DNA from: Eledone cirrhosa
Taxonomy: Eukaryota
DNA: 64,000 nucleotides
Assembly (NCBI GenBank): GCA_964016885.1
Contig: OZ024742.1
Span: forward strand, 175,584,001-175,648,000
Direction of reading: 5' to 3'
Shown in pieces: positions 1,308 through 61,998 of this stretch; positions within the stretch are counted from its first letter, which is position 1; every line of letters starts with the position of its first letter. The notes beneath the pieces were generated by a model. The model saw only the letters and a program-made list of their open reading frames with translations. It did no database searches and was not told the origin of the DNA. Made by a program: the position numbers and the translations under genes.

Positions 1308-1437
1308 TAACAAGCAAAGAATCGCTGTTTCACACTTAACGGGATCTTCTGAAACTAACAAAGTCAATCTGTGAACGGAGAAGTGAATATTTCAAAAAAC
1401 GTTGCAACCGGAGGAACACAGGAAGACGATACTTTGG

Positions 1438-15943: not shown

Positions 15944-17336
15944 AGGAGAACATGATATGAAGGCTGAAAAACACTTGTGGATAGTGCAGTTTTAAATCAA
16001 CATATGAAAAGTGGTTTTAGATTGATGTGTGATATTGGGAAAAATATTTTATTTAGAGAGGGGGGGGGGAAGGATGAAAAGGGAAGGAGATGAGAGGGAG
16101 AGATGGGTGATAGAGAGAAAGAGATAGTTTTTATAACTGAGAGGAGATATATTTTTTACATAGAGAGGTTGAAAACCGTTGGAAGATACTGTATAAATTA
16201 AAAATTTTGAAAATTAACGAAGGGAGGATATGTGCGAGGAAAAAATATTTTATTTAGGGGGAGGGGTGGAAAGGATGAAAAAAAGGGGGAGGAGATGAGA
16301 GTGAAGGTGGAGAGGGAGAGATGGGTGATAGAGAGAAAGAGATAGTTTTTATAACTGAGAAAAAGATATATTGTTTTAATATAGAGAGGTTGGGAACCGT
16401 TGGAAGATAATGTATAAATTAAAGGAATTTGAAAATTAACGAAGGGAAATTATGTATGAAGATAGAGAGAAAAAAATAATAATTGTGGGTGAATATTCTA
16501 ACGTCAAAAAAAGAAATGTATGTATTGTGGCAATTTCAAAATTAACGAAGAGAAAAATTGTTAAGGTTTGTGTGTAGAAGGATTTGAGAAAAATAATGTG
16601 AAGTTAAAGTTTGTATATTGATTGAATTGATAATATATGCGAATAAAGAGTTAATATGTATTAATAATGAGTTCGGGGATGGGGAGAAAAAAATAATAAT
16701 AAATTAAGGATGAAATTGAGATTAAAAAGATTTATGATAGAGAGAAAAAATAATAATGATTGCGGATGAATATTCTAATGTCAAAACAAATGTTATGATT
16801 TTACAAGAAGATAGAATGAGGGTAATGAGTAAACGAGTATTATAGAGTGTATAATGCCCTTTAAAGTAAGGTAGATGGGTATATTTTAAAGAGGTGTATG
16901 TATATGTGCCTTTGAGAAAAGATTCTAAATTGATAAAGAATTGAATATTAACTGCATACTTTGTGAAAAGTGCTATGGAATTTATGCAGGCAGATAGAAA
17001 ACAAATCTGTGCGTCTATTTATTATAGAATCTAGGTTAGAGATAATGGTAAATTTTTCATTTAGGCAGAGATTACAGATTTTAGATAGAGAGCTGTTCAA
17101 GTATGAGGATGCAGAAGAAATCTTCTTCCAAAAGATGGTATATTTAATGTTTTTGTCTTTTAAGGACCATATGAGTTCTGAGAGAGCAGTTTTAGTTCTT
17201 TTAAGTTTGTATTTGAAAGATGAATGATGATTATAGAGACGAGCTTTAAAAGAGGTGGAAGTGGAGCCAAAATAGTTTGAGCGCTTACTCTCATATTGGA
17301 TACCTTTTGATGGTCCTTCACCTCTTCTTCTACAAC

Positions 17337-19739
17337 ATGGATTATTACAACATAACCAATTCAACTAAAGACATTCCTATACCTGGTAAATCTGAATTCA
17401 CCAAACTTCTTATTGAACAAACTGACTCCTTCGTAAGAAGACTTAGATGGACAGCCTATTTCTATGACCAGCGCCTAAAAGGGAACTTTCATACCAAAGA
17501 ACACAACTTCCTCGATCATCTTTTTAATTCTAGACGAAATCCTCCTTCCAACAAAAATCTAGTACAATTCGAGGAAGAATTAACTAAAATAATAAAAAAT
17601 CTTAAATTCAAGAGATACCCTTACAAAGGACAAGAGCACCTTGTAAATCTCAAGAACACAATCTCTAACCTAAATTCCTCAAAAAATGTTTTAGTCCACT
17701 CTGACAAAACCAATAACCTATATGGTATTTCCAAGGATAATTATAACAACCTTATCCTAAAGGAACTTAGGAAAAAGTATCGTAAAACCAACCATGAAAA
17801 TTTAGAATGCATAAACCTTGAAGCCTATGAGATTATGTCAAAACTTGGCATTGAAAAAAAGACCGAACCATTCCTCGCAAGAACTCCGAGGATAAATCTC
17901 AAGGATCACAAAAACAATTTTCGCACTGAACTACCTGTTAGATTAATCGCCCCCTCTAAATCTGATCTGGGGGTTGTTAGTAAAGCCATCTTGGATAGGA
18001 TTATCCCACAGGTTAGTTCTAATTGCTCTTCTTTGAACCTAAATTTATGGTTTGGTACTTATGAAGTGATTGGCTGGTTCAACAAATTGGATAATAAAAA
18101 CAAACTAAAATTTATTCAATTTGATATTGCCAGCTACTATTCCTCCATTTCGCCTTCACTTCTCAATAATGCTCTATCTTTCGCACTTAAATATTCTGAC
18201 ATCACCACAGATGAACTTCACATCATCCTCACCGCACGTAAAACCATCCTAGAGTTCAACAACGCATATTGGACCAGAGCCGATACCTCTAACAACTTCG
18301 ACATCACAATGGGAGCATCCGATTCATCCCAATTGACTGATTTAATTGGTATCTTCATTTTGAACTCTTTGAGTCGGAAAATTCCTCAACTTCGCGGTGG
18401 AATTTATCGTGACGATGGACTCTTTACTATCCTAAATTGCAATATAGTTAAACTTAATATTATTAAGAACAATATACGTAATCTCTTTAACCAACATAAC
18501 CTAAAAATTGAATTTGATAATAGTATCAAACTAGCTAATTTCTTGGATGTATCTCTTAATCTTGACACTGGCCTATATTACCCTCACCATAAAAACAATG
18601 AGAACCTTAATTATGTTAACTTTAAATCTAACCATCCTACCAATATCAAGAATGCTATAGTTAATAATATTGGAAATAGAATATCTAACATATCTTCTAA
18701 TAAAAACATCTTTGATGCTAACGCCAATTACTATAATAACGCACTTTCTAAAGCCGGCTATCCAGATAAAATCAAATATAATAAAGAAACAAATTCTAGA
18801 AAAACTTACAGTAGAATAATTAATCATGACCATTCCAATAATTTTAATAAAAGACCTAGATACAAAAACATAATCTGGTATAATGCTCCTTTCTCCATCT
18901 CTATTAATAACAATATTCCTAAATTATTTTTTAGAGCCTTAAATAAATGCTTCCCTCCCTCACATATCTATAGTAAAATATTTAACAAAGACACCATCAA
19001 ATTTTCTTATTCTACATCCTCCAATATTTCCAACATTATCTCTAAGCACAACAATAAAATACTAAATACTAAATCTCTTCCTTCCAACATTGAATTTCAT
19101 AATAACAGTAATAGTACTCCCGACGTCATTGTAAACCCTAGGCTAACTTCTGTAAACCCAAATACAACGTCAAACACAACTTCGCTAAATGTTCATAGTC
19201 CAACTCTAAATCAAGAAACTATTATTCCTATTATTCCTATCGCTAACAACTTCTCCAATCCAATTCCTTCTATAGATAACACTAGATCACTCATTAATAA
19301 TCTCTCTAATTGCAACTGCCGCATTAAAAATAAATGTCCTCTCAACAACCATTGTCTCGATAAAAACTTAATTTATGAATGTAAAATTATAACTAGCACC
19401 AATTCCTTCACCTATTTTGGCTCCACTTCCACCTCTTTTAAAGCTCGTCTCTATAATCATCATTCATCTTTCAAATACAAACTTAAAAGAACTAACACTG
19501 CTCTCTCAGAACTCATATGGTCCTTAAAAGACAAAAACATTAAATATACCATCTTTTGGAAGAAGATTTCTTCTGCATCCTCATACTTGAACAGCTCTCT
19601 ATCTAAAATCTGTAATCTCTGCCTAAATGAAAAATTTACCATTATCTCTAACCTAGATTCTATAATAAATAGACGCACAGATTTGTTTTCTATCTGCCTG
19701 CATACATTCCATAGAACTTTTCACAAAGTATACAGTTAA
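17337..19739 (+). CDS. PLE polyprotein: reverse transcriptase + GIY-YIG endonuclease (~800 aa)
   Basis: MDYYNITNSTKDIPIP start; HSDKTNNLY, LKDHK, FDIASYYSSI, MGASDS, YRDDG, FLDVSL; N/T/S-rich linker; CNCR..CPL..C, LIY..YFG, ARLYNH, CNLCLNEK, INRR. No internal stops. Confidence 0.95.
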   Translation: MDYYNITNSTKDIPIPGKSEFTKLLIEQTDSFVRRLRWTAYFYDQRLKGNFHTKEHNFLDHLFNSRRNPPSNKNLVQFEEELTKIIKNLKFKRYPYKGQEHLVNLKNTISNLNSSKNVLVHSDKTNNLYGISKDNYNNLILKELRKKYRKTNHENLECINLEAYEIMSKLGIEKKTEPFLARTPRINLKDHKNNFRTELPVRLIAPSKSDLGVVSKAILDRIIPQVSSNCSSLNLNLWFGTYEVIGWFNKLDNKNKLKFIQFDIASYYSSISPSLLNNALSFALKYSDITTDELHIILTARKTILEFNNAYWTRADTSNNFDITMGASDSSQLTDLIGIFILNSLSRKIPQLRGGIYRDDGLFTILNCNIVKLNIIKNNIRNLFNQHNLKIEFDNSIKLANFLDVSLNLDTGLYYPHHKNNENLNYVNFKSNHPTNIKNAIVNNIGNRISNISSNKNIFDANANYYNNALSKAGYPDKIKYNKETNSRKTYSRIINHDHSNNFNKRPRYKNIIWYNAPFSISINNNIPKLFFRALNKCFPPSHIYSKIFNKDTIKFSYSTSSNISNIISKHNNKILNTKSLPSNIEFHNNSNSTPDVIVNPRLTSVNPNTTSNTTSLNVHSPTLNQETIIPIIPIANNFSNPIPSIDNTRSLINNLSNCNCRIKNKCPLNNHCLDKNLIYECKIITSTNSFTYFGSTSTSFKARLYNHHSSFKYKLKRTNTALSELIWSLKDKNIKYTIFWKKISSASSYLNSSLSKICNLCLNEKFTIISNLDSIINRRTDLFSICLHTFHRTFHKVYS

Positions 19740-20743
19740 TATTCAATTCTTTATCAATTCAGAATCTTTTCTCAAAGGCACATATACATACACCTCTTTA
19801 AAATATACCCATCTACCTTACTTTAAAGGGCATTATACACTCTATAATACTCGTTTACTCATTACCCTCATTCTATCTTCTTGTAAAATCATAACATTTG
19901 TTTTGACATTAGAATATTCATCCGCAATCATTATTATTTTTTCTCTCTATCATAAATCTTTTTAATCTCAATTTCATCCTTAATTTATTATTATTTTTTT
20001 TCTCCCCATCAACGAACTCATTATTAATACATATTAACTCTTTATTCGCATATATTATCAATTCAATCGATATATAAACTTTAACTTCACATTATTTTTC
20101 TCAAATCCTTCTACACACAAACCTTAACAATTTTTCTCTTCGTTAATTTTGAAATTGCCACAATACATACATTTCTTTTTTTGACGTTAGAATATTCACC
20201 CACAATTATTATTTTTTTCTCTCTATCTTCATACATAATTTCCCTTCGTTAATTTTCAAATTCCTTTAATTTATACATTATCTTCCAACGGTTCCCAACC
20301 TCTCTATATTAAAGCAATATATCTTTTTCTCAGTTATAAAAACTATCTCTTTCTCTCTATCACCCATCTCTCCCTCTCCACCTTCACTCTCATCTCCTCC
20401 CCCTTTTTTTCATCCTCCCCCCCCCCCTCCCTAAATAAAATATTTTTTCCTCGCACATATCCTCCCTTCGTTAATTTTCAAAATTTTTAATTTATACAGT
20501 ATCTTCCAACGGTTTTCAACCTCTCTATGTAAAAAATATATCTCCTCTCAGTTATAAAAACTATCTCTTTCTCTCTATCACCCATCTCTCCCTCTCATCT
20601 CCTTCCCTTTTCATCCTCCCCCCCCCCTCTCTAAATAAAATATTTTTCCCAATATCACACATCAATCTAAAACCACTTTTCATATGTTGATTTAAAACTG
20701 CACTATCCACAAGTGTTTTTTAGCCTTCATATCATGTTCTCCT

Positions 20744-20811
20744 GTTTTATCTGATGAAAACACAAATATTATTGCATGATGATGTTTGTTTTTGAAATGC
20801 GCATAATAAAA
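20744..20811 (+). ncRNA. Minimal type I hammerhead with palindromic stem III (family B)
   Basis: gttttat-CTGATGA-aaacacaaat..gtttgttttt-GAAA-tgcgca-TA-ataaaat. Confidence 0.85.
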
Positions 20812-20851
20812 TATATGGAACTCCTTTAACCATCTTTTGATCTTATATTAC

Positions 20852-29096: not shown

Positions 29097-29552
29097 AACA
29101 TACATTATACATATACATATATTTTGCAACGTTTTGTAGTGTAATTTCTTTCATGATAACAATCCTTTTAGTCTTACTCATAGCAGTAATCTTAACATGA
29201 ATACAGGAAATGTATAGTGCCAATGAAAATTCACTTTACACATCCACCCAACCATTAAACTAGTATAATATATAATATGAAGTGTGAACCTGCTGAACAT
29301 ATATAGGCATTTAATTTACAACTGATCAATAGATTTCAAGACATTTATCTTACACATATATATGTCAAAACTAGACAATGAAGGTATGAATAAGAATGGC
29401 ACAAGGGTGTAAAGAGAAGATAAATGAAATGCTCATTATTTTTGGCAGAGATAATCAGAACAGATAATCTTATGACATGGTCATTGAAAATGAATAACTA
29501 ATCAAATAGATACTTTGTAGTGTATGTATAATATATATATATATATATATAT

Positions 29553-29893
29553 ATTTATTAAAATAACAGATTAAAGATTAAGCAAAGAATCGCTGCTTTC
29601 ACCCTTAATGGGATCTTCTGAAACTAAAAAAATCAATGTGTAAATCAATGCAGAAGTAAATATTTCCCAAAACGTTGCAACTGAAAGAAAATAGGAAGAC
29701 GATACTTTGGTTCGTGGAGACAATCCCTGGCAATGCACGAACAAAAAACCGAACATAATACGTCAATATTTGGAGCGGTGAGAACAATTACACGCAAAGA
29801 CAAAACCACAATTATGGTATAAAAAAAACCCACGCAACACCTGTAACCGCACACATATGAACGTATACACCAAGTACACATAAACAATATATA

Positions 29894-29949
<56 letters not shown>

Positions 29950-32900
29950 CGTGTGGGTGTGTGTGTGAGTGTGGGTGTGTGTGTATACGTATAATTATAT
30001 AAACGTATATAAATATAAACACATAAATATGTATATAACGCGCGCACACACATACCTACAGATTAATAAACATGTGTTCGCTAAATGAACGTCAACCAAA
30101 AAACAAAGTACACCCTACATACGTGCGAACCCGCATACACACACAAATGCAAAATACACGTATACGCATAACCATATACACATGTACCTGTATATATAAT
30201 ATAACATATACATATAACAAATACAAGCAAATATACGTACGGGAAAGTATACGTAACTTCACAAAACATACAGGTAATATATACTTACCTATACAAATAA
30301 GTAATGTTATAAACATAAAATATACTTAGCTACCACATCCGCGTATTCTTCGAACTATCCGTTAGGGTATAATGTAGGGCTGTAACACTGGAAGGTTTTA
30401 TACAATTTATGTTTACAAGCTGAAATTGCCTCAGATTTTTGTTCAAGAAGTGGTCAATGGTGTAGAGTATTTCCAGGTTGCAGAGGTTGCATGGTCTTTT
30501 ATTTCCGTTATACGATCTAGCCCTAGCTAGGATCTCCCAGTGTAATCTATATTGGGTGTGGTTGTCTTTTAGACTCCAGATATAAGCTGAAAGTCACGTC
30601 ATATTCTCTCTTAAAGGGTTAAGAAAATAATGGGTATGCTTGTAAAGACGCTGCTTGAATCTATTGGCAGTTAACCCTATGTAGGCCCTACGTGACGTGG
30701 GTGTTTCAGTCTTACATTTGTAGACAATGTTACTGGAGAGGCATTTCCCGGATAGAGGGCAATCAACCCGATTCCTACCGTTACAGTTAGTACTAGCTAC
30801 AGGGTGGCATGTGTTCCTACGGCTAATTTGAAACAGTGATGTTATGTGCAAGGTTAGAAGTCGTAGATTAAGAAATGTTAATGGCATTTCTATTACAAAT
30901 TTTATTATATTTATGTGCTGGGAGGAAATACTTCTTAATAAGGGAGAGAAAGATCTTAACTAATGGTGTGGCCACCTCCATATTATATGGTTGGTTATGA
31001 CATATAATGCGTCGGCATCTATTTGTCCTAGGTCTATGCTTATACTCGATATATGCTACCTTATCTACAAATCCACTCCGACCAAGAGCTTCATTGTAAT
31101 ATGTGGAATGGTCGGTGAATATATGCACGTTTGTAGATAGACGGGAAAGCCTCAAAGAAACGTTTCTTACCAGGTTCTTGGTTATGCTGGCAGGATGGTT
31201 AGAATGCTTACTTATGTAATTAAGCGTATCATTCGGCTTTCTATACGGGTAGTGCAAGCCATTCGACAGATTGAGGGTAACGTCGAGTAATTAACGACCG
31301 AGAGGTTGGCCTCAACCTGTATGGAGAGGCTGAAACCGTTAAAGAAGGCTATGCGTTGTTTTCTGAACCTGTCACAAGCGCATGGGCCGCATTTAGTCAT
31401 GGTCAAAAGACCGTCATGACGGTACAAACCACCACCCACATTGGGGAATTCTTCCTTGATAAAGAAAAGAAGGAAAAGGCCGATAAGATCAGTAACCTCC
31501 GCAGAATCGCTGGCGCCTATACTCACGGCGAATGGGGTACTATTAGATATTTTAATCTAAATAGAGTCGTCGAAATTAATTACCAAATTACGAGCATTGA
31601 GGATGACATCAACTTCGAAATCCTTAACCACCGTGAGCGTTTTAGTCAAATTGATAGCTCTAAGAAGAATCAGTAAAGTGATGGAGGAGTAGTAAATATT
31701 GATGTCGAATTGGATAAAATGGCAATGTTCCTTGTTGCATATGCCGTTGAACCAATCAATCACCGCGAAAGAATTGTTCCACGGTGCAAGAGGGGCCAAG
31801 CTTATAATTTCAGGTATAATTCTATCTAAAATCCTTTTACTATGTCTACCTAAATAGGACTTCGTAGGGTTAATAAGCCGAATAGAGGGGTTGTTGGCGA
31901 AATTGGATTTGTGATCCTTCAGGGTAAAGTGTGGAGAAAAAGGGTCCAGAGGTTCAGTCCGGTCCTGGATGTTGAGATCAGAGGTGATTTTACACCCAGC
32001 ATCGTTGATGTCATTAATGACACTCCGATTGGTTTGACGGTAATTCTTAGTTACAGCATTATGTAGCAGTTGATGGTAAGTACTGTTCTATACTTGATAT
32101 AGATTGCCAGTTTTGCCGGAGTGGACGTGCACGGCATTAGAATTCTTAATAGAACGAATTCTATTCTTGATGTCCTGCTGGAAGGAATTGCTCCTATTCC
32201 GAAATTTGATACTCCGTATGAGTTCCAAGACATCATTTTCGAAGGGTAGCAATGCTGGGTTATTCGGAGGATTATTGTAAGTTTTAAACCCAAATTTATC
32301 CTGTTTATTATCCGCTTTTTCCTGACTATCGAAATAAAAGGCACGCCAACGCAACCTTTTAATGAACGAATCTGTTTTCTGTATCAGGTGTTTTAGATAT
32401 GTCTTGGTATGGGTATGTTCTTTGTAGAAATATTCAGATGTTGTTTCTGCATGATGAATATAAGTCAATAGAGTGCTCAACCGAGGGATCCAAATATTAA
32501 TAATAATAAATTTGAAGACTAACATCCAAAGAGGGCTCGATAAGGATAAATATATATCAAATATATAAGAACCTTAGAGCAAATATTTATTAAAATAACA
32601 GATTAAAATTTAAGCAAAGAATCACTGCTTTCACCCTTAACGGGATCTTCTGTTACGTGTAATTGTTCTTCGCGCTACACATAATGACGTATTATCTTCG
32701 CTTTTTTCTTTTCATTGCCAGGAAACGTCTCTACGAACCACCTAAATAGAATATCAGTCCACTACTTCATTTATACCATAAATTTGGTTTTGTCTTTGCG
32801 TGTAATTGTTCTCACCGCTCCAAATAATGACGTAGAATCTTCACTTTTTTTCCGTTCATTGCCAGGGATTGTCTCCACGAACCAAAGCATTGTCTTCCTG

Positions 32901-33106
32901 TTTTCCTTCGGTTGCAACGTTTTTCGAAATATTTATTTCTGCATTCACAGATTGATTTTTTTTTTAGAAGATCCCGTTAAGGGTAAAAGCAGCGATTCTT
33001 TAATCTGTTATTTTAATAAACATTTGCTCTATGGTTCTTATATATTTGATATATATTTATCCTTATCGAGCCCTCTTTGGGTTTTTGTCTTCAAATTGAT
33101 TATTAT

Positions 33107-33110
<4 letters not shown>
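29553..33110 (-). mobile_element. PLE family A, copy 2 (full-length, decayed), with partial tandem pLTR (to 32652) and inverted pLTR (32653-33110)
   Basis: Begins MQKQHLNISTKNIPIP at 32452. Frameshifted RT (YRHDG) and GIY-YIG pieces run down to ~30365. 3' pLTR ends in (TA)n. Confidence 0.93.
29575..29625 (-). ncRNA. Variant hammerhead-like motif (family A)
   Basis: agttt-CAGAAGA-tccc/attaa/gggt-GAA-AGCAG..TTGCT-T-aatct. Confidence 0.5.
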
Positions 33111-33155
<45 letters not shown>

Positions 33156-33752: not shown

Positions 33753-35150
33753 GGAGTTAGCTATTTGCTGGATGCTTTCCATTGTCTTTTTCTCTAGTTC
33801 CTGACTGTTCTCTAGTGGGGGTGTCTTAACTACGATGTTTATATCATCAACGTAGCGGGAGTACATTATCAGGGTTAAGGGGTCTTCTAATTGTTCTTTA
33901 AGTTTAAGTTTAAGTCTACTGTCCCACCATACCATGAATAAGTTAGCTATGCCGCCTCCAATGCTAACACCAATGGCTGCTCCTTCCTCTTGGGCATATG
34001 TTTTTCCATTAAATTTGAACATATGTTCCTTGGGCATTGAGGATAGAGAAAAAGCCCTCAATGCCCATATGGTAATGTGGACGAATATAATGCAGCCCAA
34101 CAAAAGGACTGCCAACAACTTCCAGGCCTGGAACAATGACGTGCCGGCGTTGTATGGGCTTCGAAAAGACCATAAAACGGGCAGTGACCCTGTCACGGGA
34201 CCACCAACACGGCCAGTCTGTGGAGCTAACATTGCCAGTAACTACAGACTGTCCTACTTCCTCTCCCTGATCATACGCCGCATCATTGAAATGTCCCCAG
34301 ATGTATGTGACAGCACGGAGGACCTCCTCAGCAGAATCGGCGAGAGTAACCGATCTAGGGACCTAACAAACTGCATAATAGGTAGTATGGATGTTGTGTG
34401 CCTGTATCCATCTATTGACGTGGATTTTGCTGTGGAGAAATGCGTAGAAATGATCAGTGAGAGCAATGTTGAGTTCCGTGGGATTGATACCAGTGAGCTG
34501 GGACTCCTACTTAAACTTACCTATAGTAATAATTACCTAGACACATATGACCTTAGCAACCTGGGCCCTACAAGACCAGCAAGAGGCAGACCACCTACCA
34601 TTACCGCAATGGCCAAGAAAACCCACACAGATAGATGGAACGGGTGGACCAGAGCCATACGGACACACGAAAACCACGATGAACTGAAGAAAATGATTGC
34701 ACATGCGGTAGGGGCCAGCATAAAACTAACCCTTAAGGAACATATGTTCAAATTTAATGGAAAAACATATGCCCAAGAGGAAGGAGCAGCCATTGGTGTT
34801 AGCATTGCAGGCGACTTAGCTAACTTATTCATGGTATGGTGGGACAGTAGACTTAAACTTAAACTTAAAGAACAATTAGAAGACCCCTTAACCCTGATAA
34901 TGTACTCCTGCTACGTTGGTGATATAAACATCGTAGTTAAGACACCCACACTAGAGAACAGTCAGGAACTAGAGAAAAAGACAATGGAAAGCATCCAGCA
35001 AATAGCTAACTCCATCCACCAGAGTATTAGAGTTACTATAGACTACCCAAGTAAACACCCCAACCATCGATTACCTGTACTAGACACAGAGCTCTGGTTA
35101 GATACCATTAATAACAAAAAACAAATCCTCCATTCCCATTATGCCAACCC

Positions 35151-36041
35151 ATGACTTCCAAACATCTGATCCACCGAAACTCGGCCGTTTCGGACCATAC
35201 CAAAATCAACATACTGATTGCGGATTTGGTACGGGTGATGAGAAACGTGTCCCGCATGTGCAACCCCGAAGAACTAGAGAGACACATACAACACTTCATC
35301 CACCGTATGCAGTTCTCTGGCTACAATCAGAGAGATAAAATCAGAGTGTATAGAGGAGCCAGAACCAAATGGGAAAAAATGGTAAATAATCTGAAAAAAT
35401 GGGACCTGGCCTTGTATAGGAGCAAATTTTGGAATAGAATAGAAAGAATTAGCAACAAGGCTAATGGAATAAACTCATGGTATGATAGCAATAAATACCA
35501 GAGTGTAATGTTCATCGATACAACCACTAGAGGTGAATTAGCTTACAAATTTAGAAGGGCCCTAGATAAACATAAACTCAATAGTAAGATAGTAGAAAGA
35601 CCAGGTACCTCCGTAAAAACAGTTATTAGCAAGACATACCCTTTTCAAAGACCCTCATGTATAGATAAGAAATGTATAACCTGTAAAATATGCCCCCATA
35701 TTAACTGTAAAACTAGAAATGTAGTGTATAGCATAAGATTTACTGAAGGACAATGTAGAGACAAAAATATAGTGTACATAGGTGAGACAGCTCGTAGTGT
35801 AGGGGAACGGATAAATGAACACTGGCGAGACCTTCAAGATAGTAAAGAATCATCTGTACTCTACCAACATGCTAAAATAGAACACAAGGGTAAATTAGAG
35901 AACATAGAAATAAAAATAGAATCTACACACAGAAAAGACGCAATGGTTAGACAAATCACAGAGGCAATAAACATAAAAGAATTACAACCAAAATTAAATA
36001 GAAAATATGAGTGGAACAGCAACATCACAACTTACAATTAA
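35151..36041 (+). pseudogene. PLE family C thumb/linker + GIY-YIG segment
   Basis: 296-aa ORF that continues the 34032-35154 RT after a frameshift. Confidence 0.85.
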
Positions 36042-36242
36042 GGACAAAATGAAAACACACACACATATAGAACAAACAACCAACCAGTAACATGTAAATA
36101 AACAAATAAATAAATGAACAGAAACACACACAGACACCCGGATGTGGCGCATGCGCAGACTGAGCACACAGCACACACACAGAAACAAAATGGCGTAGGA
36201 CAGACCAAAGGAGAGGCACAAAAACAAAGAAAAGCATCCCCA

Positions 36243-36285
36243 GTCACTGAAGAGGTCACATAGTGTGTGACGAAAGAACTATGAC
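36243..36285 (+). ncRNA. Minimal type I hammerhead (family C)
   Basis: gtca-CTGAAGA-g-gtcacat/agt/gtgtgac-GAAA-gaac-TA-tgac. Confidence 0.85.
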
Positions 36286-36495
36286 AATATATAAACAACT
36301 ATCTGGTTGTGGAACCAACCAACCAGAAATTTATAAATTTATAAATTTATTATAATAAATTGAAGTGAAAGCAACTGGTGCGTGTGTTTCTTATTGGCAA
36401 CATGACCCTCCCAAAGTATAACAATATCGGTTTCAACACACGATTTCAGATAAAGAATCTTGCTAAACAAATTCAGAAACGAAATATATATATAT

Positions 36496-37910
36496 AACAC
36501 GTGCAACCCTGTAGTTAGTACTAACTGTAATTGTAGGAATCGGGCTGATTGCCCCCTATCCGGGAAATGCCTCTCTAGTAACATTGTCTACAAATGTAAG
36601 GTTGTAACACCTACGTCCCGTAGGGCCTACATAGCGTTAACCGCCAATAGTTTCAAGCAGCGTCTTTATATGCATACCCATTCTTTTCGTTACCCTCTAA
36701 GAAGGAATATGACGTCACTTTCAGCTTATATCTGGAGTCTAAAAGACAACCACACCCAATATAAGTTACACGGGGAGATCCTAGCTAGGGCTAGATCGTA
36801 TAACGGAAATAAAAGACCATGGGACCTTTGCGCCGCTGAGGCCCTGGAAATACTCTACGCCACAGACCACATCCGGATAGCACGATCTATACGTGGATAT
36901 TTTACGTCTTGATGTGGGAGCTAAGTATATGTTTTGTTTAATCCTTTACTTATTTGCATAGGTATGTATATATTGCCCGTATGTTTTGTGAAGGTATGTA
37001 TATCTTCTCGTACGTATATTTGACTGTTATGGCGTATAATTTTTACATATTCTGGTATTTAGGGTTTGGCTATGTGCATACGGGAGTTTTGCGTCTGCGT
37101 GAGTATGTAGGTTTGTAAGCATGGTGGGTGTGTGTATATGTGTACTTCTTGTTTTTGTTGACTTACGTCTCCGAACATTCGTGTATTTATTTGTAGGTAT
37201 GTGTGCGCGCTTGTTATATACGTATTTATTTACTTATATACGTTTATATAATTATTTATTTATTTGTACACAAGCATACACACACACACATATTTATATG
37301 TGCGTGGTTTTGTATACCTATGGTAAGGTTTTGCATATGCTTGTGTATGTGCGTATCTGTTTGCGTGTATGTATTTATTTGTTTCTATTACTTCTGTATT
37401 GTATTTATTTACTTTGTTCTTAACTCTGTAGTGGAGATTCATTTGGTCTCCTAGTTAGAATTTTAGTCTACAACTTCTGCTATACCATATACGTGGTTTT
37501 GTCTTTGCGTGCTATTGTTCTCCACGCTCCACATATGACTTATTATCTTCGTTTTTTCGTTCATTGCCAGAGAACATCTCTATGCACCACCTAAGAGAAC
37601 ATTAGTCTACGACCTCTTTCATACCATAAACGTGGTTCTGTCTTTGCGCGTAATTGTTTTTCACGTATTATTCGTTTTTTCCCGTTCTTTGCCAGCGAAC
37701 GTTTTCCACGGACCAAAGTATCGTCTTCCTGTCTTCCTCCGGTTGCAACGTTTTTTGAAATATCCAGTTCTGCGTTTACAAATTGACTTTGTTAGTTTCA
37801 GAAGATCCCGTTAAGGGTGAAAGCAGCGATTCTTTGCTTAAACTTTAATCTGTTATTTTAATAAATATTTGCTCTAGGGTTCTTATATATTTGATATATA
37901 TTTATCTTTA
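36496..37910 (+). mobile_element. PLE family A, copy 3 (GIY-YIG + 3' pLTR)
   Basis: CNCRNRADCPLSGKC..IVYKC. Matches 3211-4160 and 29553-30815. Confidence 0.9.
37794..37844 (+). ncRNA. Variant hammerhead-like motif (family A)
   Basis: agttt-CAGAAGA-tccc/gttaa/gggt-GAA-AGCAG/cgattct/TTGCT-T-aaact. Confidence 0.55.
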
Positions 37911-44787: not shown

Positions 44788-45187
44788 CTAGCAGAATGAC
44801 ACGGTGTTGCTCGGGGTTTGCTCTAGGGTTCTTATATATTTGATATATATTTATTCTTATCAAACCTCGTGAAATAAATACGTTTGTTTATATTTTGTTA
44901 TTGTGTATGCAAAAATATCTGTACACGAATATATAATTATATATATATATATTTATATTAAAATAACAGATTAAAGTTTAAGCAAAAAATCGCTGCTTTC
45001 ACCCTTAACGGGTTCTTCTGAAACTAAAATCAATCTGTGAACGCAGAAGTAAATATTTCGAAAAACGTTACACACTATATATATACACACACACTATATA
45101 TACATATATACACACACACAGCGTCATAATGTCCTAATGCAGACAGCCAGACAGACAGACAGACATTCTCTGTTTTAGATATATAGA
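44788..45187 (-). mobile_element. Non-autonomous Helitron containing PLE family A pLTR fragments
   Basis: Minus strand: A|TCTATATATCTAAAA, (TGTC)n near the 5' end, 3' CCCGAGCAACACCGTG..CTAG|T. AT insertion site, no TSD. Confidence 0.75.
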
Positions 45188-49858: not shown

Positions 49859-50150
49859 TACGATATATTAACAAATGGAAACTATATTTATAAAACCATA
49901 TTTATTTCATTATACATATTCCAAGGATAGTCTATCCGGGAGCTTCCAACAGAAATGGTTGCATTATTTAAGGGTATGTCAATATTTATTTATAAAACTG
50001 ATATATATTATATTTTATCTGACGAAAGCACACCATAATTTAACTTGGTGTCCTTGAAATATGTATAATGAAATAAATATAATGAAATAAATATAGTTTC
50101 CATTTGTTAATATATCGTATTTTTACTCCAATAATTTGTTGAGTGCTTTA
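49859..50150 (+). mobile_element. Orphan PLE pLTR with 5' inverted partial copy
   Basis: 49859-49927 is the reverse complement of ~50051-50119. Contains a hammerhead and the TTGAGTGCTT motif. (TA)n flanks. Confidence 0.75.
50011..50075 (+). ncRNA. Minimal type I hammerhead
   Basis: tattttat-CTGACGA-aagcacacca/loop/tggtgtcctt-GAAA-tatgta-TA-atgaaata. Confidence 0.85.
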
Positions 50151-61769: not shown

Positions 61770-61899
<130 letters not shown>

Positions 61900-61998
61900 T
61901 ATATTAACAGATTGCAGTTTAGGCTAAGAATCGCGGCTTATATATAGATACTCCTTATCGAGCCCTCTTCGGATTTTAGTCTTCACATTTATTATTAC

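Follow-up and report, generated by a model that had tools for sequence, protein, structure and literature searches.

The 64,000-nt stretch of Eledone cirrhosa DNA analysed here (the window) contains copies of a Penelope-like element (PLE), which we call family A, and the copy of main concern is a 5'-truncated one that carries the 3' end of an ORF, a spliceosomal intron and a hammerhead-like motif in its pLTR (Table 1). On the plus strand, 37794-37844 reads AGTTT CAGAAGA T CCC GTTAA GGG T GAA AGCAG CGATTCT TTGCT T AAACT, which bears out both the letters and the hammerhead layout given in an earlier note on this DNA and places the predicted cut between 37839 and 37840. Three helices surround the core and helix I is open, as in type I hammerheads; G12, A13 and A14, the A15.1-U16.1 pair and H17 are all present, and six of the seven positions of the canonical C3 U4 G5 A6 N7 G8 A9 conform, the only departure being A for U at position 4 (U4A). 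The extent first proposed, 37794-37844, holds for the core, but the whole motif is larger and runs from 37778 to 37853. A strict type I descriptor, written with a C-N-G-A-N-G-A core, found six sites in the window, two in family A (the copies at 37794 and 45025 only) and four in another PLE family, and none in each of the 30 locally shuffled windows used as a null.

Table 1. Positions of the features discussed, numbered from the first letter of the window.
Feature	Position	Strand	Basis
3' fragment of RT-GIY-YIG ORF, 5'-truncated copy	36454-36912	+	sequence comparison
Spliceosomal intron in 3' UTR/pLTR; second donor at 36994	36962-37695	+	spliced retrocopies
Distal helix I extension, 5' strand; private G>A at 37781	37778-37786	+	pairing
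Helix I bulge, 7 nt, U-rich, ending TT/AGTT	37787-37793	+	subfamily variation, folds
Family A hammerhead core region	37794-37844	+	sequence, shuffles, layout as in published Hydra-clade hammerheads
Likely first nucleotide of capped element RNA	37794	+	5'-end pile-up, extra G
Proximal helix I	37794-37798 with 37840-37844	+	sequence
C3-A4-G5-A6-A7-G8-A9	37799-37805	+	sequence
A4 in place of canonical U4, family-fixed	37800	+	genome-wide letter counts
Helix II, 3 bp, U.U-flanked	between A9 and G12	+	sequence
G12-A13-A14	37819-37821	+	sequence
Helix III	37822-37838	+	sequence
U17	37839	+	sequence
Stretch past predicted cut, into longer tail and 204-nt ORF leader	37840-37910	+	copy mapping
Distal helix I extension, 3' strand	37845-37853	+	pairing with 37778-37786
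Damaged motif copy in inverted pLTR	1312-1356	-	sequence
Near full-length decayed family A copy	29551-33112	-	sequence comparison
Inverted pLTR within the preceding copy	32653-33112	+	sequence comparison
Further motif copy with private A10.1	44975-45025	-	sequence
Family B intact 829-aa frame	17250-19739	+	sequence
Family B hammerheads	20743-20815; 41088; 38241; 15936	+; +; -; -	sequence

Copies of the motif do recur at the places listed earlier, but they are less intact than had been implied. Except for the one at ~32965, the further copies lie on the minus strand. The near full-length element has a truncated 5' hammerhead at 32611-32652, which begins at C3 at an inversion junction, and a 3' hammerhead at 29575-29625 with a mismatch in helix I, while the copy at 1312-1356 has one broken helix II pair and lacks both G15.2 and the 3' strand of helix I. 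The perfect accc/gggt stem II described at 44975-45025 is present, but its A-U closing pair is a private change, the family norm at that position being U.U (70/71 copies). A candidate sister family at 61892-61939 was rejected, as it is a decayed family A copy. It had also been expected that standard searches would miss the motif, which is true of a "cuganga" descriptor; Rfam, however, gave 141 matches at E<=5, not one of them a hammerhead, and overlooked the canonical hammerheads of the window as well, so that its miss is not specific to U4A.

Family A, with at least 41,618 tail copies genome-wide, is identified as a Hydra-clade PLE by its motifs, its targets and a by-eye comparison with a published protein alignment. 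From 127 scored loci we took 20 with long open frames, 17 of which have start codon context; the ORF is 708-710 aa long in 15 of these 17. YRDD, WRA and HSDKT each occur in 14/17, the GIY-YIG-like C-terminal motif in 15/17, CxCx5C in 13/17, and the RWK motif takes the form RWR (R for K) in 11/17. These ORFs are mutually 97-99% identical, and the family A ORF gave no match in Pfam. A single ORF joining RT to a C-terminal GIY-YIG domain is characteristic of the Hydra clade, as are the pLTRs, inverted partial copies, tails and (TA)n targets that we found, TA repeats adjoining 42 of 45 short-ended copies; the canonical pLTR hammerhead of the clade is lacking in family A owing to U4A. Three copies have a pLTR-ORF-pLTR structure; in these, 204 nt separate the start of the motif from the ATG, no other ATG lies upstream, and a second motif starts 909-962 nt past the stop codon. 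Of 100 copies, 45 have a short 3' end close to 37865, about 25 nt beyond the predicted cut; long tails reach as far as +160. A 5' end lying 99 nt ahead of the tail anchor is common to six of 100 copies, in which it follows a TG/TA-rich flank; these copies probably represent a non-autonomous derivative. In several pLTR copies one unrelated short repeat is inserted at a single site ~170 nt upstream of that anchor.

Using a query with the helix I strand in front, we counted A at position 4 in 18,362 genomic matches and another letter in 181, i.e., A4 in 99% of family A copies. U4A is thus a trait of the family and not copy-specific decay, as had been argued, and the genome-wide consensus carries A4 rather than reading CUGAAGA. 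By eye, the non-A letters in the first 100 such matches listed were 39 G, 33 T and 28 C, a near-even split that is expected from mutation after insertion. The sequence CNGAAGANCCCGTTAAGGG occurs 26,479 times in the 3.0-Gb genome, with 0 control matches. Among 129 copies from 157 loci, selected independently of their core letters, position 4 was A in 124, T in 4 and G in 1, and the four copies with T are truncation or inversion junctions. The possibility that CUGAAGA copies form an ancestral subfamily was rejected, since each one examined proved to be a junction from inversion or truncation at the TTCAGAA palindrome, or else a sporadic point change; annealing of two cDNAs at this palindrome also yields apparent CUGAAGA copies. 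When the closest outside protein (56% identical) served as query, family A alone was recovered, and no sister family at intermediate distance. On these counts the motif is a real, family-fixed core variant of a known ribozyme kind. Seven loci carry a chimeric repeat in which the family A motif, from A4 on, follows an unrelated upstream sequence, so that the core reads UAGAAGA; this repeat recurs and has spread as a family of its own.

To locate the 5' ends of family A copies, we mapped the first 100 of the 41,618 tail-anchored copies. Of these, 26 have their ends inside a 16-nt interval around 37794, including one mis-aligned inversion; the next 32 nt upstream contain no ends, and one copy ends at the predicted cut site. 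Although the template base before 37794 is T, this base is G in 6/8 ended copies vs. 13/70 at other ends (p=0.002), in 20/28 junction loci with varied flanks and, genome-wide, in 1,529 of 2,749 non-T cases. The sequence around this position, TT/AGTT with the stroke before 37794, is one we take to be initiator-like. An untemplated G of this kind is read in L1 as a copied cap (PMC9341517), so the pile-up and the extra G together suggest that transcription starts inside helix I and that 37794 is likely the capped +1 of the element RNA. The earlier note had proposed mapping RNA 5' ends at 37840; genomic copy ends point instead to a capped 5' end at 37794, and a cap mark in genomic copies offers a way to map a start site when RNA is not at hand. 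Annealing of two cDNAs better accounts for those ends of the pile-up that sit at the TTCAGAA palindrome. A4 as an alternative capped start was dropped, G being rare before A4 in the first 100 matches listed. An internal promoter is described for Penelope of D. virilis (PMC2377424), and the literature searched yielded nothing on family A or on transcription beginning within a hammerhead of a PLE.

Counted from 37794, helix I resumes beyond its 7-nt bulge in intact copies, where -16 to -8 pair with +52 to +60 over 9 bp, a length reached in 31 of 5000 shuffles. The probability of this distal pairing was 0.94-0.97 in 85-nt folds of three copies and 0.03 in one 180-nt fold. Since transcription likely starts inside helix I, a capped copy would be made without the distal strand. 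In 71 copies, no subfamily-shared change falls in +1 to +49 vs. 17 in 121 upstream positions (p=0.003); for 58 core, helix and loop positions, a set drawn after the data had been seen, the count is 0 vs. 17 in 112 other upstream positions (p=0.0007). Two of the shared changes lie in the helix I bulge, which differs among subfamilies in letters and length, and one lies just outside the distal helix, of which one strand has a single minor change (4/60). Loops II and III are invariant to the same degree as the core, so this pattern is no proof of selection for catalysis; conservation of the motif may reflect promoter or protein-binding sequence together with few source lineages. Helices I-III show 0 compensatory changes among the 129 copies, whose differences arose mostly after insertion.

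The 26 Hydra-clade rows in File S2 of Craig et al. (2021; PMC8557442) are, like family A, type I hammerheads in pLTRs with a helix II of 3-4 bp. As in family A, U follows A9 and U precedes G12 in 14 of the 26 and the cut follows U in 10, so the U.U-flanked helix II and U17 are ordinary for the clade; the hosts likewise have RT, C-terminal GIY-YIG, DKT, CxCx5C and (TA)n targets. In contrast, CUGA is found in 26/26 rows where family A has A4, the 15.2-16.2 pair is C-G (26/26 start "ac") where family A has G15.2-C16.2, and loop III measures 1-3 nt as against 7 nt. Helix III can form within one copy, as noted earlier, but it is not unusual, since it spans 3-4 bp in the published Hydra-clade hammerheads, and the longer loop alone is new in family A. 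The same paper calls canonical hammerheads universal in the Hydra clade and reports that Naiads amplify without hammerheads. Minimal metazoan PLE hammerheads (Cervera and De la Pena, 2014; PMC4209133) share with family A the pLTR location and a short helix I, occur as thousands of solo copies and include core variants (U3-A8). Their helix III, however, is absent or small and palindromic rather than a closed hairpin, their helix II is long with G10.1-C11.1 rather than short, and family A further differs by U4A. The viroid U4C hammerhead (cited in Perreault et al., 2011; PMC3088659) also has a natural change at position 4, but a pyrimidine transition, whereas in family A, a genomic element of high copy number, the fixed letter is a purine. 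The Anolis element PAc (Poseidon; Frangieh et al., 2024; PMC11167929) shares with family A two internal RT start sites past the hammerhead and an uncut RNA template; its core is canonical and cuts with protein, whereas any cutting by the altered core of family A is putative. No U4A or U4G hammerhead was found in the literature searched, and an earlier report of U4A may exist; the passages searched in PMC11014351, PMC6155905 and bioRxiv 10.64898/2026.07.22.740005 add nothing on U4A.

Other hammerheads at hand have canonical cores. Family B (17,311 tail matches genome-wide) is Hydra-like, with a protein 36% identical, a CUGAUGA hammerhead and a palindromic helix III; its 5' ends pile up ~70 nt before the core (20/84 ends, G in 9/22). 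Family D, with a few hundred matches genome-wide, shares the geometry of family A, has a canonical core and shows covariation in helix II, where a C-G pair has become U-A; the 11 loci examined have a long but interrupted helix I, and two copies have their start within the bulge region of that helix. A third PLE family in the window has a minimal hammerhead (CUGAAGA, 7-bp helix II) at 36240-36290 (+), after ORF pieces at 33856-36041, and a short AT-rich repeat at 50011-50075 (+) has a CUGACGA core and a palindromic helix III. At one locus, A>G and T>C differences amount to 2-5% in sequencing run X4 vs. under 0.4% in X2; these resemble A-to-I editing, and as X4 is unrecorded as RNA they are a lead only.

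Since cDNAs that reach the cap have traversed the cut site, their templates were uncut, and capped genomic copies therefore show that insertion templates escape cleavage. Cut-site junctions with a G/C flank in family A numbered 120 vs. 69 at the control position, and inspection found 23/30 and 11/30, respectively, to be true junctions; many true cut-site junctions have AAA in common with the partner arm. Genomic 5' ends form no spike at 37840 in family A. Canonical family B gave 47 matches at its cut site vs. 18 at the control, and 2/84 of its ends lie there. Since neither family has a cut-site spike, such ends do not separate active from inactive hammerheads. Insertion from uncut templates fits the behaviour of the lizard PLE, in which uncut RNA is the template, the hammerhead cuts only with protein and is dispensable for insertion in vitro (PMC11167929). 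PLE hammerheads are reported to be generally slow (PMC4209133; PMC6765202). The hammerhead fold of family A lies 3.3 kcal/mol above a form in which a UUUCA:UGAAA helix, lengthened by A4, covers G12-A14; this competing helix has a probability of 0.56 with A4 vs. 0.05 in one natural U4 copy, which differs from the A4 copy at a second site as well. Helix III prefers a slipped register. However, no monomer hammerhead fold is obtained for canonical family D either, and in view of this and of the second difference in the U4 copy the argument from misfolding is weak. A viroid gets by with a natural U4C change in spite of markedly reduced activity, U10.1-U11.1 is tolerated in hammerheads (PMC3088659), and U4 did not appear among the inactivating changes of a phage selection (PMC4075628); U4A may therefore keep real activity.

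The reading we favor, at a probability of roughly 0.6, is that the family A motif is an attenuated hammerhead lying over the likely transcription start, and that most of the RNA would stay uncut and capped. In the capped 5' copy, helix I would consist of only 5 bp, mostly A-U, without the distal strand, so that the cap would be kept. The read-through 3' copy would have the 9-bp distal helix too and would be the better candidate for residual, perhaps protein-assisted, cleavage. Low activity could be tolerated or even favored, since a cut at +46 would remove the mRNA cap and would part the full-length template from RT start sites 25-115 nt beyond; full-length templates would still contain the internal priming sites that follow the 3' copy. 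The most amplified family having an altered core, beside related families with canonical cores, raises the question of whether it disarmed its ribozyme, and Craig et al. consider that PLE hammerheads may even restrain or parasitise their hosts (PMC8557442).

It is unlikely, in our estimate, that U4A is instead a physiologically active hammerhead cleaving in monomeric form, chiefly in the read-through 3' copy, with cut RNAs never inserting. The remaining core bases are canonical and helix III is self-contained, but the hammerhead fold is 2-3 kcal/mol above the best one and the register of helix III slips. Position 4 belongs to the more permissive part of the core (PMC3088659, PMC4075628), yet U4 is retained in every published Hydra row (26/26). 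The bulged long helix I of the 3' copy could supply tertiary contacts, the distal helix is kept though the bulge varies, and canonical family B templates are uncut as a rule too; against this, the 129 copies offer no compensatory change. A related proposal, which we likewise consider unlikely, is that the hammerhead still cuts and is switched by position, the incomplete 5' copy sparing the cap while the 3' copy cleaves. If true, the range of natural core letters would widen to include a purine at position 4, and PLE hammerheads would have a concrete control mechanism.

Less probable still is a dead relic, in which one source element gained U4A and the sequence was kept only as an internal promoter and a protein-binding and RT-start region, or the family is simply young. 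Such an origin would be consistent with the near identity of the ORFs, the invariance of loops as well as stems, the start site inside the motif (recalling the internal promoter of D. virilis Penelope) and the amplification of Naiads. However, the distal strand upstream of +1 stays complementary to +52 to +60 while the bulge changes, and the whole motif is common to subfamilies that differ at 17 nearby sites, both of which count against a relic.

PLEs are best known for intron retention. The pLTR intron of family A is about 730-780 nt long across copies, and about 75 of the first 100 matches listed are spliced retrocopies; its acceptor lies 97-98 nt upstream of the first base of the hammerhead. 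That A4 is present because C3-A4-G5 serves as a splice acceptor, splicing restoring or rebuilding the core, has in its favor a pyrimidine tract before CAG, a real intron in family A and a D. virilis PLE intron that stops at helix I (PMC4209133), but it is hardly credible and was rejected, since none of 200 matches listed at the two main donors joins the hammerhead AG. Spliced copies rely instead on the acceptor that lies 97 nt upstream; the 30 loci in which different letters precede the core include no splice from donors within the element, and the main donors would produce UAG or AAG, not CUG. Many retrocopies have lost the pLTR intron; two donors were used, and besides the main acceptor there is a minor one 4 nt further upstream.
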